A stretch of 41,513 nucleotides of DNA from an archaeon (GTDB lineage: Archaea; Iainarchaeota; Iainarchaeia; Iainarchaeales; 0-14-0-20-34-12). The notes beneath the pieces are model-generated. The model saw only the letters and a program-made list of their open reading frames with translations, was not told the origin of the DNA and searched no databases. Below are positions 6,409 to 41,513 of this stretch, piece after piece; position 1 is the first letter of the stretch, and the number at the start of each line of letters is the position of its first letter. The stretch lies in the NCBI GenBank assembly GCA_038046645.1, contig JBBSVU010000013.1:1-41513 (forward strand), in the 5' to 3' direction. Both the position numbers and the translations under genes were made by a program.

Positions 6409-9025
6409 CCTTGCTCACCCCTTCCTTGTTTTTTAGCAAATATAATGCGCGGTGCATATCTACTGCTTGCCCTTTGAAGCTGTACATAGGGAATACCCCA
6501 TCTTCTGAGTATAAATATTGTATAATCCTTCCGCCGCCGCTTCTTACTGTAAGGTCATTTCTTGCTGAAAGATCCTTCAGTGAATTTGCCAGTCTCCTGT
6601 ATAAATATCCTGATACTTTAGTGCTTACACCAGTGTCAACCTCACCTTGCCGCCCACCCATTGAATGGAAGAAATATTCCTTAACATCCATCCCGTCAAT
6701 GAAGTTTGAGTTGATAAAGCCACCAGCAATAGGCCCTAAATCATTTTTCTTGTTCAATGCAATAGCTCTTCCTGCAAATCCTCTTGTAGGCCTTCCTTCC
6801 CTGACAGCTGCCTGTCCCCAAAATCCGCTGATGTTCATTAAATTAATGCTTGAACCCCTTGACCCTGACACAATCATGATTGTTGTATTCAATTCAGGCT
6901 TGTCTTTAAGTATGTCCTTTATTTTTTCCTTCAATAAATGTTTTTCAATAGTGTCCTTTACTTTGAAACCAAGTTGCATCATCTTTATCTCGAAACTTTC
7001 CTTCCTTGTCCTTCCTGGGATTAATTCTAATGTTTTTTTCTTGAATTCATCTACAAGTTTTTCCCCTTCCCTTAATTCTTCTTTCTCTACCTTTTCAATC
7101 TCCTTGAGGATTGCATCAGGGGTTTCATATTCGTCTAAACTAGCAGTAATTCCTTTTCTTGTAATTACCTTTGTAATTATCCTGTTTATTTTGTAATAGA
7201 ATTGTTCCAGAACTTCAGGAGGATAATATCTAGCTAACATATCAATCAATTTACCTTTGCCTTCTCCCAATGATGCTGAGTCAATTACCCCTTTTACTAA
7301 AACACCATTTTCAATCTTTACGCAATAAGGGCATTTTTCTCCCTGGCATTTGTAATTAGGGTCTGCTTTCTCAAAGATATCGCAGGTTTTTGACCTGTAT
7401 TCCATATTCAAATCCTTTGGCAATAATAATGAAAATATTAATTTTCCACTATATTTGTTGCCTTTGTCTGTTTTTGGAATATCTTCAATCCCTAAATCAT
7501 AGAAAAATTCATATGCTATGCTTCTATCGAACTCAGAACTGTCCAATGTTAAAAGATATGTGCCAGATATGCCATCTTCATCCAATATAATAAGTGGAGC
7601 ACCATATCTCGGGCTTAAGGTTTGGTTTTGCGCAAACATCAATTCAAGTGCTTCAGTTTTCCCTTCTTCTGTCTGCGGAATGTGTAGGTTCATTTCATCC
7701 CCATCAAAGTCAGCGTTATAAGGTTTACATACAGCCGGATTTAATTTCAATGTTTTATCTTTGGTAATTTTTACCTTATGGGCCATCATTGATGCCCTGT
7801 GCAAGGAGGGCTGCCTGTTGAATAATGCTATATCACCATCAATTAACCTTCTCTCAATTTTATAGCCTGGAGTTATTTCATCAGTTATTTCCTTTTTATT
7901 TTCTTCAGAGAATATCTTCCTTTTTTCATCAGGCCTTATTACATATAAAACATCATTGCTGTCCTTTACCATTTTCTTTATCCTGTCAATATTCCATTCA
8001 GTTACTGCTTCCTGCACAGTCAATTCATCCGCAATTTCTTTTGGAACTCCTACCTGATTAATTGACAAATAAGGATCAGGGCTAATTGTAGACCTTGCAG
8101 CAAAGTTTACTCTTTTTCCTGTTAAATTATACCTGAATCTTCCTTTCTTTCCCTTTAACCTCTGCACTAATGATCTCAAAGGCCTTCCAGACCTGTGTTT
8201 AGATGGAGGAATGCCTGCCATCTGATTATCATAATAAGTAGTGACATGGTACTGCAGTAAATCCCACAAGTCTTCAATAATTAATTGCGGGGCCCCGGCT
8301 TCAATATTCTCCTTTAACCTCATATTAATTCTTACAATATCGACCAATTTATGGGTTAAATCATCCTCTGATTTTATTCCTGTTTCCAAGGTAATTGAAG
8401 GCCTTATTGTAATCGGCGGAACAGGCATTACAGTTAATACGAACCATTCTGGCCTAACATTTTCAGCGTTATATCCGAATAATTCCAAATCATTGTTTGG
8501 GACCTTTTCGAGCCAAGACCTTAAATCATGCGGATAAATTCTTTCCTTATCAAGATAATAATTTGTTGGCCTATCCACCTTTAATTCAGGTATTTTTGCA
8601 GCACAATGCGGGCATTTTCTTACCTTCATTGTTCTTAATTTAATTAGCCTAGTTAAATCATCTGTTTCCATCTTTCTGTCTTTTAATACTTTTATTTTGT
8701 CTTCAGGCAGTAAAATCCTGCCGCATTCTTTACAAGTGCATAGCAATAAAACTTCAACCCTTTTTGAATACTTAGCATGCAATACAGGCCTTACCAATTC
8801 AAACGCACCAAAATGGCCAGGGCAATGTTTCATTGTTTGCCCGCAGGTTTTACATCTTAAACCAGGGTTAATTACTCCTAAATGTGAATCCATCAATCCT
8901 TCTTCTAACGGATAACCGTCCTTATCATAAGTATCAGCTGTTTTAATTTCTATTGCACTCATCTTCCTGATTAAATCAGGGTTTAAGACACGAAATTCAA
9001 TATAGCTGATTTTCTTTTGCATCAT
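6386..9025 (-). CDS. rpoA1: DNA-directed RNA polymerase subunit A' (Rpo1N)
   Basis: CKTC..CPGHFG Zn site, [18 protein letters not shown], catalytic [19 protein letters not shown]. Confidence 0.98.
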
Positions 9026-38200: not shown

Positions 38201-39022
38201 CTAACCTACTTTTGCAGGGTATGTTTTAAAAACCTCAATATTAAGGATTTCTTCCTTGCTTGTCTGGGTTGCATCAAAGCCTACTTTAAAATAATTGGGG
38301 GAATCAAACTTTATTGATTTTATTCCAGCTAGTTTTTTAAGTTCACTGGATATCAATACGGCATGCCCCGGGCAGGGAATATCTACCCTAAGAGTTATTT
38401 CTGACAGCGCTGGCACAGCAATTTTATTTTCTTTTGCTAGAGCTACTGTTCCGCTGTTAACAGTATCTGTGCTGAAATTTGCAGTCATAGGGAATATGAC
38501 AAACATGAACAATAGGCTAATTCCAATTGTTGAGCCATACATTGCAGCAAGGTATCCTTTCTTTCTTTTTATCCCTTCCCAAGACAGCAGCCCATATTTA
38601 TTTAAGTATATTATTGAGGATAAGGTTGCAAACACAAGTGAAATCCCTATCAGTATATAAAAAAACCACGGATTAAGGAGCAACGGCTTGAACAATTCAC
38701 AAGCAACAGTTACACCCAGTACTGAAGCTGCTATAAATCCGATACAGCCCACATGTGGCAGAAGGCCGTAGATTAGGCCTTGTTTTAGTGTGCTTTTTTT
38801 AAGGGCCATGGAATTTTTTACAGTATACTCTGCATTATGTATTTCTTCTTCAATTCTTTTTCTTGATATTTTATCAGAATCAAATATTATATTTGCATTT
38901 TCTTTCTCAAAGCTTGCTGTTACTTTCTCAATGCCTTCTAACTTTGAAACCCTATCTTCGATTATCTTTTCGCAGCTCTTGCAGTGCATCCCCTTTATCC
39001 CAATAACAATTGTACTTTTCAT
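38201..39022 (-). CDS. heavy-metal-associated (HMA) domain + 3-TM + variant HMA-like domain protein
   Basis: GMHCKSC N-terminal HMA; TM1 LLPHVGCIG; C-terminal ITLRVDIPCPGHA domain. Confidence 0.85.
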   Translation of the reverse strand: MKSTIVIGIKGMHCKSCEKIIEDRVSKLEGIEKVTASFEKENANIIFDSDKISRKRIEEEIHNAEYTVKNSMALKKSTLKQGLIYGLLPHVGCIGFIAASVLGVTVACELFKPLLLNPWFFYILIGISLVFATLSSIIYLNKYGLLSWEGIKRKKGYLAAMYGSTIGISLLFMFVIFPMTANFSTDTVNSGTVALAKENKIAVPALSEITLRVDIPCPGHAVLISSELKKLAGIKSIKFDSPNYFKVGFDATQTSKEEILNIEVFKTYPAKVG

Positions 39023-39355: not shown

Positions 39356-39877
39356 TTATTCTTTGCAGCAGTCTATAATGCCCTTAAGATATGCTGAGAT
39401 TTTATTTTTTGGCTTGTTTATATTCTCATTGCCGGAATCTTTGCTTGTAATTTCGCTGTTCGCATATGTTGCTTTTTTCTCATTTTTATTTATATTCAGC
39501 TGCCAGAAATGGAAGTACAATTCAAAGGCTTTGGCATATATATCTTGCGCTTTAGCATAATCTTTCCCATAATACTTATTCCCAACCTCAATAAGCCTCA
39601 TGCTGGCAGCAAGCAGATGCTTGCTTGTGCACCATACCTCTCCTTCAGGTTCCTTTACTATTTCCTTCAGAAGATTCTTCCGTATCTCTCTTGCTGTCTG
39701 CAATGTCTCAAGATATTCGTTCTTGCCGGTTTTCATTGCAGTAAAATAAAGGTGCTCTTCAATGCTGATTAGATTCATCAATGCTATGCTTAAATCCTCA
39801 TCCAAAGAAAGGTCAAAGCCTTCCTTGTTTTTTATTTCATTTACTTTTTTTATTAAATCGCTCACTTGTTTTTCCAT
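39356..39877 (-). CDS. helical hypothetical protein with putative metal ligands
   Basis: DEDLSIALMNLISIEEH, EVWCTSKHLLAAS, C-terminal IDCCKE; SD-like GAGTGA. Confidence 0.8.
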   Translation of the reverse strand: MEKQVSDLIKKVNEIKNKEGFDLSLDEDLSIALMNLISIEEHLYFTAMKTGKNEYLETLQTAREIRKNLLKEIVKEPEGEVWCTSKHLLAASMRLIEVGNKYYGKDYAKAQDIYAKAFELYFHFWQLNINKNEKKATYANSEITSKDSGNENINKPKNKISAYLKGIIDCCKE

Positions 39878-39891
39878 TTTACATCACTCAA

Positions 39892-40419
39892 TTATTTTAC
39901 AAACATCATGCTTATGCTTGCAATTATCAAAACCAGAACTATAAGTACAATTGTCTGGAAAGGAAACAAGACTTTATTCTTATTCAATTCCTTAATTTTC
40001 TTGCTCACAATTGGCATTGCATAGGTTAATACGCTTCCAACAATTATCCCTAGCAACAAGCGGTCTATTCCAAAGGCTTTTGCATATGTTCCATTCATTA
40101 ATCCAGCAGCATAAAATGAACCAGTGGTTAGTATGAATGCAGTTATTGACATCAATGGTGCTTGAAAAGGAATAAAGCGTTTCTTTAGTGCATTGTTTGC
40201 CCATACTGCTGTTGATATAATAAAAGCGCCTATCCATACCCCCATAATGGCATCATCAAAACCATATACCCTTGTTGTAACTAAACCAACACCTACTGCA
40301 GCAGTGCATATTGGGCAGTGCGCATGTACGGGCATTGTGTTAAATATGCCAAATATGATTGTGCTCAATACTGCTACAATCCTATTATGTATGTTAAAAA
40401 TTTTATTGAATATTTCCAT
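39892..40419 (-). CDS. membrane protein with HCxxC motif
   Basis: ..VHAHCPICTAAVGVGL after a signal-like segment, then about four TM helices; SD AGGTGA. Confidence 0.8.
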   Translation of the reverse strand: MEIFNKIFNIHNRIVAVLSTIIFGIFNTMPVHAHCPICTAAVGVGLVTTRVYGFDDAIMGVWIGAFIISTAVWANNALKKRFIPFQAPLMSITAFILTTGSFYAAGLMNGTYAKAFGIDRLLLGIIVGSVLTYAMPIVSKKIKELNKNKVLFPFQTIVLIVLVLIIASISMMFVK

Positions 40420-40495: not shown

Positions 40496-40789
40496 TTATT
40501 GCATCATTCCCTTCATATGATTCATATTATTGCCTGACATCATTCCCATCTGTTTCTGGCATTGCTCATGCATTGCTTTCATACCTTGTGCATTCATATT
40601 TTTGTGATGTTCTTTCATCATGCCTTGCATTTTTTGATTAGAAGACATCATGCTATGCATGCTCATCATTGACCCAATATCTATTTGGTTTCCTTTTATG
40701 CTGCTGCTTTTTTGATTAATGTAGTGTGCAGATACGCCTGCAATAATCAAGATAAAAACAGCAGCCAGTACAGCTATTTTATAGTTCAT
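40496..40789 (-). CDS. small exported Met/His-rich protein (putative Cu/Ag binder)
   Basis: Signal peptide ..GVSA|H; MMSMHSMM, MMKEHH, MHEQC, MNHMKGMM. Confidence 0.8.
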   Translation of the reverse strand: MNYKIAVLAAVFILIIAGVSAHYINQKSSSIKGNQIDIGSMMSMHSMMSSNQKMQGMMKEHHKNMNAQGMKAMHEQCQKQMGMMSGNNMNHMKGMMQ

Positions 40790-40790
40790 C

Positions 40791-41024
40791 TTAACAACCC
40801 CCTACTTGCGAAGGAAGATTATTTACTGCGCTTGAAGCGCTTGATGTTTCCTGCCCTGAATGATGATCGCTCATGTCAGAGCTGCTTGTGTTTGCCGTAA
40901 CCGTACTTGCGCTCGCATAGCCTGTCTGGATATTTGTATTTGGGTTTGGCAGCAAAACAAAAAATGCTGAAAATACCAAAAGCCCAATTATTGCTATTCC
41001 TGCTATTGCAATTTTTGCATTCAT
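40791..41024 (-). CDS. small membrane-anchored protein ending LPSQVGGC
   Basis: ATG 41024 one nt after the upstream stop; N-terminal TM, Ser/Thr-rich linker with DMSDHH, C-terminal LPSQVGGC (track start 41075 overlaps the upstream gene). Confidence 0.8.
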   Translation of the reverse strand: MNAKIAIAGIAIIGLLVFSAFFVLLPNPNTNIQTGYASASTVTANTSSSDMSDHHSGQETSSASSAVNNLPSQVGGC

Positions 41025-41025
41025 T

Positions 41026-41513
41026 TTAACAACCCCCAACCTGTGAAGGCAACTCAATGGCTGCGCTTCCCCCACTTTGTACTGCTTTCAATTTTAGGGC
41101 TTTATTTACTGTTTCTTTAGGGAAGAATACTGCCTTCCAGTCATTTGCTGCTTTCAATATTGCATCATCTGACCAGTCTGCATGGTTTTGTATAAGGTAT
41201 TTTATTAAACCACGCATTGCGTAGCTATGTTCACAACCACATGCCGGCTCACCACTTGGTGTAACCAAGGTTGTGGCACCGCAACAATATTCACATGCTG
41301 TTTGTGATGCAATGCTTACATATCTTTGCAATTCATCTCCCTGCAATGTTACTGTTTTATCTATGTTTGACATAGGTGCAATACTTTCTGCAGCTTTGTC
41401 AAAGCTTATCCCTAATTCAGCGCCATATATTGCAGGCACTCCTGTTGGAATAACTTCTTCAATCGTTTGTGCAATTAATTTATCATTAGATGCAGCAGCA
41501 GTTACATTGCCTG
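41026..41513 (-). CDS. 5'-truncated Cys-rich protein (CEYCC / CGCEH) ending LPSQVGGC
   Basis: Frame open to the window edge (..GNVTAAASNDKLIAQTIEEVIPTGVPAIYG..); ACEYCCG, ACGCEHSYAMRGL, WKAVFFP. Confidence 0.8.
   Translation of the reverse strand, partial: GNVTAAASNDKLIAQTIEEVIPTGVPAIYGAELGISFDKAAESIAPMSNIDKTVTLQGDELQRYVSIASQTACEYCCGATTLVTPSGEPACGCEHSYAMRGLIKYLIQNHADWSDDAILKAANDWKAVFFPKETVNKALKLKAVQSGGSAAIELPSQVGGC

Follow-up and report, generated by a model that had tools for sequence, protein, structure and literature searches.

The octapeptide LPSQVGGC that ends two adjacent genes in a 41,513-nucleotide stretch of archaeal DNA (contig C13:1-41513, hereafter the window) is almost certainly this genome's version of a conserved C-terminal tail, [L/G/S][P/G/S]x[M/Q]-V-G-G-C-COOH. 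This tail is shared by a family of cysteine-rich proteins and by one or two partner proteins encoded just downstream of them, in DPANN archaea as well as in bacteria of the candidate phyla radiation (CPR). The window, which comes from the Iainarchaeota/Diapherotrites group of DPANN, belongs to a 1.17 Mb assembly of 25 contigs that is 89% complete. The larger of the two window proteins is P0001; its family is referred to below as FAM and residue numbers follow P0001. As for function, we favor, tentatively and at somewhat less than even probability, a tethered thiolate arm that hands on Cu(I) with the help of thiol-redox proteins, a reading drawn from gene context and structure models.

The first of the two genes is a minus-strand open reading frame (ORF) at 41026..>41511 that continues past the end of the window. 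Its full product, P0001, has 228 residues and ends in ...AAIELPSQVGGC. The next minus-strand ORF (40791..41024) starts with an ATG at 41024, stops at 40791-40793 and encodes a protein of 77 amino acids (aa) ending in ...AVNNLPSQVGGC. The 24 nucleotides (nt) encoding the tail read ttg cct tca cag gtt ggg ggt tgt in the FAM gene and ctt cct tcg caa gta ggg ggt tgt in the small gene. They differ by five bases across four codons, all of them synonymous and none leading to a replacement. An earlier note on this DNA, made from the sequence alone, had reported that the adjoining genes share LPSQVGGC through differing synonymous codons and had described the second protein as a transmembrane anchor, a Ser/Thr-rich tether with DMSDHH and the tag; both observations are confirmed. 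In the whole assembly, these two are the only ORFs that end in GGC among 10614 stop-to-stop ORFs of at least 40 aa, so that the sharing of the octapeptide is not due to chance.

The conservation of the tagged pair was assessed by a scan of one genome per prokaryotic species. It returned 518 matched stretches, 401 of which were confirmed to encode a FAM relative; unless otherwise given, the locus counts below refer to the best 80 of these 401 loci. The archaeal loci belong to Woese-, Pace-, Aenigmat-, Micr-, Iain-/Diapherotrites and Nanohalo-archaeota, and the CPR loci to Kerfeld-, Falkow-, Veblen- and Buchananbacteria, Parcubacteria and Microgenomates, with a few bins otherwise labelled in addition. 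A FAM ORF is found in all 80 loci and ends in G-x-C in 78. It is followed by one (66 loci) or two (8 loci) small tagged ORFs on the same strand, which mostly overlap the FAM stop codon or lie at most about 40 nt away. With the tagged pair present in 74 of 80 loci, the motif is not confined to the window genome; such a confinement is what the earlier note had named as fatal to its proposal. The six loci devoid of a tagged partner are L024, where the contig ends, L035, where seven extra residues follow the tail, L076 and L081, two Hydrothermarchaeales loci with MVGSC or MVGDC tails, and L016 and L047.

The logo of the tail is [L/G/S][P/G/S]x[M/Q]VGGC. Among 79 FAM tails, position -5 is occupied by Met in 60 and Gln in 18, and is followed by Val in 77, Gly in 79, Gly in 76 and Cys in 79. 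The partner tails (n=83) have 63 Met and 20 Gln, Val in 82 and both Gly and the Cys in all 83. The residue at position -5, Met or Gln, matches between FAM and partner in 78 of 79 pairs. Likewise, the hexapeptides preceding GGC resemble each other more within a locus (3.53) than in 1000 shuffles, for which the mean is 2.49 and the maximum 2.93. At the nucleotide level, every synonymous codon for V, G, G, C and stop is used across the 156 tails of the 80 loci, and the codon identity over V-G-G-C is 1.82 out of 4 within a locus versus 1.36 between loci. Because the codons vary freely and their identity within a locus is low, selection bears on the peptide, and a ribosome-binding constraint or gene conversion is excluded. 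Codon usage and family-wide conservation thereby support the proposal, made in the earlier note, that the tail is a functional module conserved as a peptide rather than as DNA.

There is next to no chance that the tail is a DNA-level artefact, in which the Gly codons would also serve the following gene for ribosome binding or one gene end would recently have been copied from the other. Both window tails are indeed followed by taaRatg, and GGGGGT stands 6-7 nt before the next ATG. Nevertheless, the two window tails have accumulated synonymous differences and no replacement, the distance to the next gene varies from overlap to more than 400 nt, and the same tail is kept in archaea and bacteria. 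Codon diversity, variable spacing and conservation across the two domains refute a ribosome-binding or gene-conversion artefact as well as a recent duplication.

The tail is restricted to this gene pair. Only three other ORFs ending in GGC were found among the 12885 ORFs of the 80 loci. In five other whole genomes, V-G-G-C followed by a stop occurs at exactly two adjacent sites each, in addition to two stray matches that are not ORF ends. As these five genomes contain no further tail-ending ORF, the tail is not a general sorting signal. The same restriction makes it unlikely that the tail is a general processing or conjugation signal, which the earlier note had offered as one option. In its specific form, an enzyme would cleave after Gly-Gly or would link the Cys or the C-terminus to a lipid, a surface or a protein. 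The invariant tail, the large residue at position -5 and the Gly-Gly are reminiscent of recognition peptides, and the invariant Cys and His of FAM could be catalytic. However, the tail is the very C-terminus with neither a membrane helix nor a basic tail behind it, the pair is the only tagged one in six genomes where sorting signals usually serve many substrates, no peptidase- or sortase-like family recurs among the neighbours, and both proteins are already anchored in the membrane. Taken together, we consider such a signal very improbable. A sortase, exosortase or archaeosortase signal was rejected because the tail consists of the last 5-8 residues before the stop and has two carriers in each of six genomes. 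A ubiquitin-like or sulfur-carrier Gly-Gly end was rejected as well, the FAM model being helical and the tail being predicted to be extracytoplasmic.

The larger protein defines a family of its own. According to the alignment, FAM proteins comprise an N-terminal hydrophobic helix, a low-complexity linker, a cysteine-rich ectodomain, a variable short linker and the tail. The domain carries the motifs IPTGVPxIYGxELG, ACEYCCGA, ACGCAHSYAMRGL and WKxLFFP, and the residues that are invariant in an alignment of 39 sequences include C140, C143, C144, C158, C160, H162, G226, G227 and C228. A word-indexed search identified 113 FAM relatives (E<=1e-3), none with a precomputed Pfam domain. The tail ends in [QM]VGGC in 99 of them, in GGC in 103 and in G-x-C in 106, and most of the seven relatives lacking a G-x-C end are fragments. 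The homologs therefore keep the terminal GGC, the loss of which would have spoken against the earlier note, and the link drawn there between the tag and the CxxCC/CGCxH protein is borne out in that the tail is part of that protein family. A profile search of 1.84 billion representatives extended the family to 346 clusters (50% identity, E<=1e-3). The canonical tail ends 116 of the 144 newly returned representatives, five others end in GGC and most of the rest are truncated. Rare variants include WVGDC, WVGEC, FVGSC and QSGSC. Among members that reach the end of the FAM domain, 204 of 215 terminate in G-x-C.

Neither FAM nor the partner matches a Pfam or NCBIfam family, and the same holds for each of the 39 aligned FAM members. 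No literature on a VGGC-type tail or on FAM was found at the title and abstract level, nor was a family model or a solved structure. These empty Pfam, NCBIfam and literature searches support the earlier note, which knew of no characterized family for the tag. Covariation separates two FAM subfamilies, one with LPx[QM]VGGC and FFPK, the other with NYINLASNKYRGIE...GGMVGGC and FFPG. Some members are fusions, either to a multi-transmembrane CPVCP domain (P0242) or to an HHRxG domain that resembles the C-terminus of the CCAHH membrane protein of the same loci (P0221). Two FAMs without a tail (L028, L066) end in ...YRGIEK but have all Cys motifs; the one or two tagged partners that come next may supply the tail in trans. 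FAM is encoded in 39 of 215 genomes of the window's phylum (17 of 58 high-quality ones) and is absent from both closest relatives of the window genome; its distribution is patchy and accessory.

The partners have only the anchor and the tail in common. An N-terminal hydrophobic segment is present in all 81 partners found by a first pattern. A juxtamembrane QxxQ[ILVM] occurs in 53 of these 81 versus 3 of 572 other proteins of the same loci with an N-terminal helix, and FAM has NQxQ at the same site, just after its anchor. These Gln-rich motifs may mediate helix-helix association or may be part of a signal-peptidase site (VQA|FQ), through which some partners could be released. A sequence search with the 77-aa partner returned only the window's own protein and one 86%-identical relative. 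The extended tail LPxSLxNLP is found in 14 of 80 partners, clear Met/His modules in 21 (WTxxEKMNYEMHG in 11, ETYEQMMARMHP in 10) and other Met/His patches in three. Seven of 80 carry a cytoplasmic N-terminal CC, within the same DCC motif as the cytoplasmic CC-ended proteins described below, and seven have at least three His there. Judged from its sequence, the partner is in effect a cysteine on a leash. The modules WTxxEKMNYEMHG(T/I)(I/V)PAR and E(T/S)Y(E/D)(Q/E)MMARMHP(D/E)Q move between proteins: small tail proteins, some FAM linkers (L058, P0072) and other envelope proteins of the loci contain them, and a thioredoxin-like protein (L023 6843-7502) has one at its N-terminus. Loci with such mobile modules include L013, L022, L023, L031, L038, L052, L057, L062, L067, L078 and L079.

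The side of the membrane on which the tail resides was predicted from the positive-inside rule. Lys and Arg are more numerous before than after the anchor in 64 FAMs and less numerous in 3, out of 76, and the corresponding numbers are 41 versus 13 out of 79 for the partners. Both proteins are thus predicted to be oriented N-in/C-out with an extracytoplasmic tail. The AF2 model of the whole FAM, built with the family alignment, has a mean predicted local distance difference test (pLDDT) of 87.1 and a helical ectodomain; that of a 161-aa FAM piece reaches a pLDDT of 92.8 and a predicted template modelling score of 0.88. In the two models, the tail block has a pLDDT of 91 whereas the linker before it drops to 67 and 69, so that the tail is modelled as docked on the domain. 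When the FAM ectodomain, taken as residues 1-145 of the 161-aa piece (alignment A2), was modelled in complex with the last 38 residues of the partner (alignment A3), the score was 0.12 (mark 0.32), which weighs neither way.

The tail could also have a purely structural role. The two tails would then be joined by a disulfide between the chains, or would serve as a latch joining FAM to its partner or auto-inhibiting FAM, with no cargo chemistry. The pairing and covariation of the tails, their modelled docking and the conserved Gln-rich juxtamembrane motifs of both proteins, which suggest association in the membrane, are in line with it. However, a plain disulfide would need no invariant V-G-G before the Cys, the neighbourhood is rich in other proteins of the Cys-relay type, and tail-less FAMs coexist with tagged partners. 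A structural role is accordingly quite unlikely in our judgement.

Structural comparison provided a single lead. Foldseek found no match in the PDB at E<=0.001 for either FAM model, a profile search of PDB sequences with FAM returned only a DsbA chain at E 0.45, and the ESM Atlas yielded nothing but unnamed clusters. When 48161 chains were searched, the periplasmic domain of CcmH from Pseudomonas aeruginosa (2hl7_A) came first both times and was the only chain at Z>=5. Its Z scores of 5.5 and 5.4 are below 8, with a root-mean-square deviation of 2.6-2.7 and 71/82 residues aligned, and the next-best PDB chain on the FAM ectodomain has Z 4.2. An alignment of FAM with Escherichia coli CcmH by hhalign places ACEYCC on RCPKC, although at E 0.19 it is not significant. 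The likeness to CcmH is weak and is best taken as a fold lead, not as family membership. No FAM member out of 39 matches PF03918 (CcmH) even at E<=10, no match exists in the window genome, FAM gene included, and the recurrent neighbours include no other conspicuous Ccm family.

CcmH (CycL/NrfF; PF03918) is the thiol-disulfide oxidoreductase of System I cytochrome c maturation, in which it works with CcmG and DsbD/CcdA. It folds as a three-helix bundle on a single anchor and bears LRCPKC in the loop that follows helix 1 (Cys25-Cys28); its targets are the cysteines of apocytochrome c (PMC3884852). FAM is predicted to share the single anchor and the small helical extracytoplasmic domain, and may share the position of the CxxC after the first helix; its charge bias and N-terminal helix point to an outward-facing anchored protein. 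DsbD-type membrane proteins and thioredoxin-like proteins are neighbours of FAM. In contrast to CcmH, FAM has CxxCC, CGCxH in an inserted hairpin, and a tail that ends in Cys.

This comparison is the basis of the most serious alternative, a pure thiol-disulfide relay. FAM would be a CcmH-like oxidoreductase whose CxxC forms a mixed disulfide with a terminal Cys; its own tail would serve as the shuttle, the partner tail would be the dedicated substrate, and copper would be the stressor and not the cargo. Partners oxidized by envelope stress would be re-reduced through FAM, with electrons supplied by a DUF411-DsbD_TM route or by the pair of HCPxC and CC-tail proteins described below. Besides the CcmH match and the alignment of the cysteine motifs, the relay is favored by the parallel with P. 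aeruginosa CcmH, another helical periplasmic domain on a single anchor, which holds its CxxC in a loop and has a Cys-bearing peptide as its target (PMC3884852). The recurrence of DsbD_TM, DsbA-like and multi-thioredoxin proteins points the same way, a DUF411/DsbD_TM component occurring in 51 of 80 loci and thioredoxin-like proteins in 38. On the other hand, a CcmH-type reductase needs two Cys, yet the FAM domain has five invariant Cys and one His; a vicinal CC is typical of soft-metal sites; and DsbD_TM was not detected in the window genome, while the fold and sequence support for CcmH is below significance. The relay is a somewhat unlikely explanation in itself and nearly as good as the Cu(I) arm.

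The copper reading draws in part on the genes around the pair. The features of the window and of the adjoining sequence are collected in Table 1. The window ends (41513) at a run of N within the contig; GNVTAAA is encoded on both sides of this run in frames that do not join (L001 ~6500-6840). This suggests an unmerged scaffold join, P0001 giving the uninterrupted product.

Table 1. Location of the tagged gene pair, its motifs and neighbouring genes (window positions, except where locus L001 is named)
Feature	Position	Strand	Remarks
3' part of the FAM gene, residues 68-228 of the 228-aa P0001	41026..41513	-	Anchor encoded outside the window
CEYCC motif, C140/C143/C144 of P0001	41281..41295	-	All three Cys invariant in the 39-sequence alignment
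CGCEH motif, C158/C160/H162 of P0001	41227..41241	-	All three residues invariant
FAM tail LPSQVGGC	41029..41052	-	Stop codon 41026-41028
Small partner gene, 77 aa and stop	40791..41024	-	Anchor, flexible Ser/Thr/Ala-rich linker, tail
Hydrophobic N-terminal helix of the small protein, residues ~5-25	40950..41012	-	Membrane anchor, possibly an uncleaved signal sequence
DMSDHH in the linker of the small protein	40860..40877	-	Possible degenerate Met/His metal-binding patch
Small-protein tail LPSQVGGC	40794..40817	-	Stop codon 40791-40793
Anchored Met/His-rich protein, 97 aa, next gene of the operon	40496..40789	-	Made largely of Met, His, Gln and Asn
Membrane protein, 175 aa (family HCPxC)	39892..40419	-	HCPIC right after a signal-peptide-like N-terminus
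Protein of 173 aa without membrane segment (family cyt-CCxE)	39356..39877	-	Ends in ...IIDCCKE
Protein of 273 aa: HMA (GMHCKSC), membrane domain (PHVGC), C-terminal PCPGH domain	38201..39022	-	Pfam HMA 2.2e-16
CopA-type P1B ATPase, 880 aa	L001 7094-9736 (C13 beyond the window)		Directly upstream of the FAM gene
DUF2933-like protein, 79 aa	L001 9753-9992		Precedes the CopA-type ATPase gene
Membrane protein with CSIC and CKQC	L001 10013-10474		Precedes the CopA-type ATPase gene

The 880-aa CopA-type ATPase has an N-terminal CGMEV/TRASH-like motif, two HMA domains and CPC. On the other side of the pair, the 97-aa protein contains the stretches MMSMHSMMSS and MGMMSGNNMNHMKGMMQ; it matches no Pfam or NCBIfam family and, by its composition, looks like a candidate Cu(I)/Ag(I)-binding Met-rich protein. 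The families HCPxC and cyt-CCxE to which the next two genes belong are recurrent. HCPxC is present at 28 of 80 loci with HCP[LIA]C in 27 of 29 members, 22 of 25 cyt-CCxE proteins end in CC plus one to three residues (DCCKE in 12), and the two form 19 adjacent pairs, cyt-CCxE almost always standing behind HCPxC. With the end of cyt-CCxE, terminal cysteines thus appear a second time in these operons, here on the cytoplasmic side. HCPxC, cyt-CCxE and CCAHH proteins have no Pfam or NCBIfam model. In the 273-aa fusion, only the HMA part is recognized by Pfam, and a relative of its membrane and C-terminal parts was found at none of the 80 loci. The co-occurrence with a PHxGC/PCxGH membrane protein predicted in the earlier note thus fails; other Cys-motif membrane proteins recur at the loci in its place.

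Context was counted by clustering the ORFs of the 80 loci. A typical locus begins with a membrane-bound MarR/DUF7343 regulator, followed in order by FAM, the partner, DUF411 (CopG) and/or DsbD_TM, as separate genes or fused, then HCPxC, cyt-CCxE, a multi-thioredoxin protein and a CCAHH membrane protein. Around this operon lie genes for CopA/HMA, DsbA-like, DUF2933, Met-rich SHOCT and PCYCGC proteins. The most frequent components are CCAHH (55 loci), DUF411/DsbD_TM (51), the regulator (45), CopA/HMA (39) and thioredoxin-like proteins (38). At least one copper-type gene (CopA/HMA, DUF411/DsbD_TM, Met-rich SHOCT, DUF2933 or PCYCGC) is present at 68 of 80 loci. Pfam scores of neighbour genes reach 82.9 and 88.5 bits for DUF411 and up to 49 bits for DsbD_TM. 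Another contig of the window genome (G000 contig C12:229-2178) starts with a relative of CCAHH (41% identity over 300 aa) and a membrane-bound MarR-like regulator, and may continue the same cluster across a contig break.

Some features of the loci recall known copper or soft-metal systems. CopG (DUF411, with a CxCC motif) is linked to copper resistance. Its gene frequently stands just after the tail pair and, as predicted for FAM, it is Cys-rich and extracytoplasmic; no FAM member matches the DUF411 profile, and the modelled FAM fold is helical. A PCYCGC gene separate from FAM is found at 6 of 80 loci. No FAM member matches PCYCGC (PF13798), and the C-G-C...H pattern common to both is a resemblance only. 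Cysteine relays for soft metals are known from MerP/MerT/MerA, where MerA has a C-terminal CC arm, and from Ctr1, whose C-terminal HCH tail binds Cu(I). There, a thiophilic metal is passed between stations across the membrane by flexible ends with a terminal or vicinal Cys. FAM operons are similar in that they hold HCPxC proteins with Cys at the membrane edge, cytoplasmic proteins ending in DCCKE and HMA domains. Unlike the Mer relays, the VGGC tail has a single Cys and no pair. NCBIfam models of Mer families gave only HMA-domain-level hits far below cut-offs, on the 273-aa neighbour, and none for FAM or the partner.

A Gly-flanked terminal cysteine is also found in sulfur oxidation. SoxY has a carboxy-terminal GGCGG whose substrate-binding Cys carries sulfur intermediates, and this Cys is the mobile arm of an extracytoplasmic protein (PMC6067878, PMC5336275). 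The tail V-G-G-C-COOH shares G-G-C with this sequence but lacks the trailing GG, the Cys being the last residue. In both cases, a CcdA-type reductant supply is nearby (SoxV/CcdA and the SoxW/SoxS thioredoxins in Sox). The terminal Cys could by analogy ferry a covalently bound substrate between enzymes, for instance sulfane sulfur as persulfide or polysulfide, which we regard as rather improbable. The resemblance of the V-G-G-C end to GGCGG (PMC6067878, PMC5336275), the CcdA-type protein and thioredoxins in the context, and rhodanese-like, i.e. sulfurtransferase, proteins at 8 of 80 loci (Pfam 1.2e-14 for one) favor such a carrier. By contrast, FAM and its partner are both membrane-tethered, the predicted FAM fold is helical, a second copy of the arm sits on a partner that has no domain, and the neighbouring genes point to copper and not to Sox enzymes. 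SoxY (PF13501) has no match in FAM, in the partner or in the window genome (SoxZ was not searched for), and no Sox enzymes are among the recurrent neighbours, where copper-type genes dominate and rhodaneses are few. A secreted rhodanese with a C-terminal RPCCGN...PDCNHGMAA domain is encoded at L011 4618-5991 and also at L010, L042 and L063; this domain loosely recalls the CCG...CGCxH pattern of FAM.

The idea of the earlier note that the tag is a tethered thiol arm for metal or reducing equivalents is still the best reading. The gene neighbourhood, the pairing of the tails, their restriction to the two genes and their conservation are established. From these we infer, for the Cu(I) arm, an extracytoplasmic location, docking, thiolate chemistry and copper as cargo, which can be assembled into the following model. 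At the outer membrane face, the Gly-Gly hinge and the free terminal Cys would together make up a thiolate arm able to swing, and [M/Q]-V-G-G would be a docking peptide fitting a pocket of the FAM ectodomain beside the Cys/His cluster. The ectodomain would be the docking station, with the FAM arm acting in cis and the partner arm in trans. The arms would be loaded with a thiophilic cargo, for which Cu(I) is the likeliest candidate, coming either from the adjacent CopA-type pump or from outside. By ligand exchange, this cargo would pass to the Cys cluster of FAM, to CopG-like proteins and to Cys-motif membrane proteins. DsbD/CcdA-type proteins, or the HCPxC and CC-tail proteins, would keep the thiols reduced.

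Several observations weigh against this model. Concerning the cargo, a single Cys is by itself a poor Cu(I) site, and the alternation of Met and Gln at position -5 speaks for a packing anchor and not for a thioether ligand. In 42 of 80 partners, no motif is present besides the anchor, a Ser/Ala/Gly/Gln linker and the tail, i.e. no metal-type motif other than the Cys. CopA/HMA genes are found in just 39 of the 80 fetched loci. In the window genome, no DsbD_TM was detected and no DUF411 either (a search that also matched 0 of 14 control genomes), so that the proposed reductant supply is missing or different there. Concerning docking, the position of the tail on the FAM domain is suggested by pLDDT alone. 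Tail positions -8/-7 covary with S110, A108, K199, E200 and E85 (mutual information with average product correction, z 5-7.5), but their interpretation as contacts was rejected since the signal separates the two subfamilies. The exchange of Met and Gln occurred 6-7 times on the domain tree with only two independent pairs on supported branches, and co-evolution of the two tails is for this reason inseparable from shared descent. Finally, the CcmH likeness is weak on every count (Z ~5.5, empty Foldseek search, hhalign E 0.19, no Pfam match) and, if real, would favor redox chemistry no less than metal chemistry.

The small partners could also be seen as membrane-tethered protein stand-ins for a low-molecular-weight thiol, each a Gly-Gly-Cys end group on a flexible leash, which would buffer copper, electrophiles or oxidants on the outside of the membrane while FAM, recognizing the [M/Q]VGG-Cys peptide, docks and recycles their arms. 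We hold this to be unlikely. The cells that carry the leash proteins lack an outer membrane that could hold back a diffusible thiol, and no glutathione synthesis genes were detected in the window genome at its 89% completeness. Under the same hypothesis, and with as little likelihood, the regulator, FAM, the leash proteins and the reductant conduit would make up a self-contained operon for thiol buffering at the envelope, shared by horizontal transfer between CPR and DPANN.

DPANN archaea and CPR bacteria account for a large share of microbial diversity, and the biochemistry of their envelopes is almost unknown. Here, a compact operon is common to the two domains, and neither a family model nor a structure nor a paper was found for its central proteins. 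Their defining trait is simple, namely an invariant C-terminal Cys on a putative docking peptide, duplicated on a leash-like protein. Cysteine arms as such are already known, SoxY, the MerA tail and the thioredoxin reductase tail being examples; what appears to be new is a membrane-tethered arm that is duplicated on a domain-less partner and has a dedicated docking peptide. The short tail can serve as a search handle for the annotation of such operons. Should the arm carry Cu(I) or, alternatively, reducing equivalents, the few swinging-arm carriers would gain a new, membrane-tethered member, and it would become clear how copper and thiol stress are handled at the surface of cells that have no periplasm.

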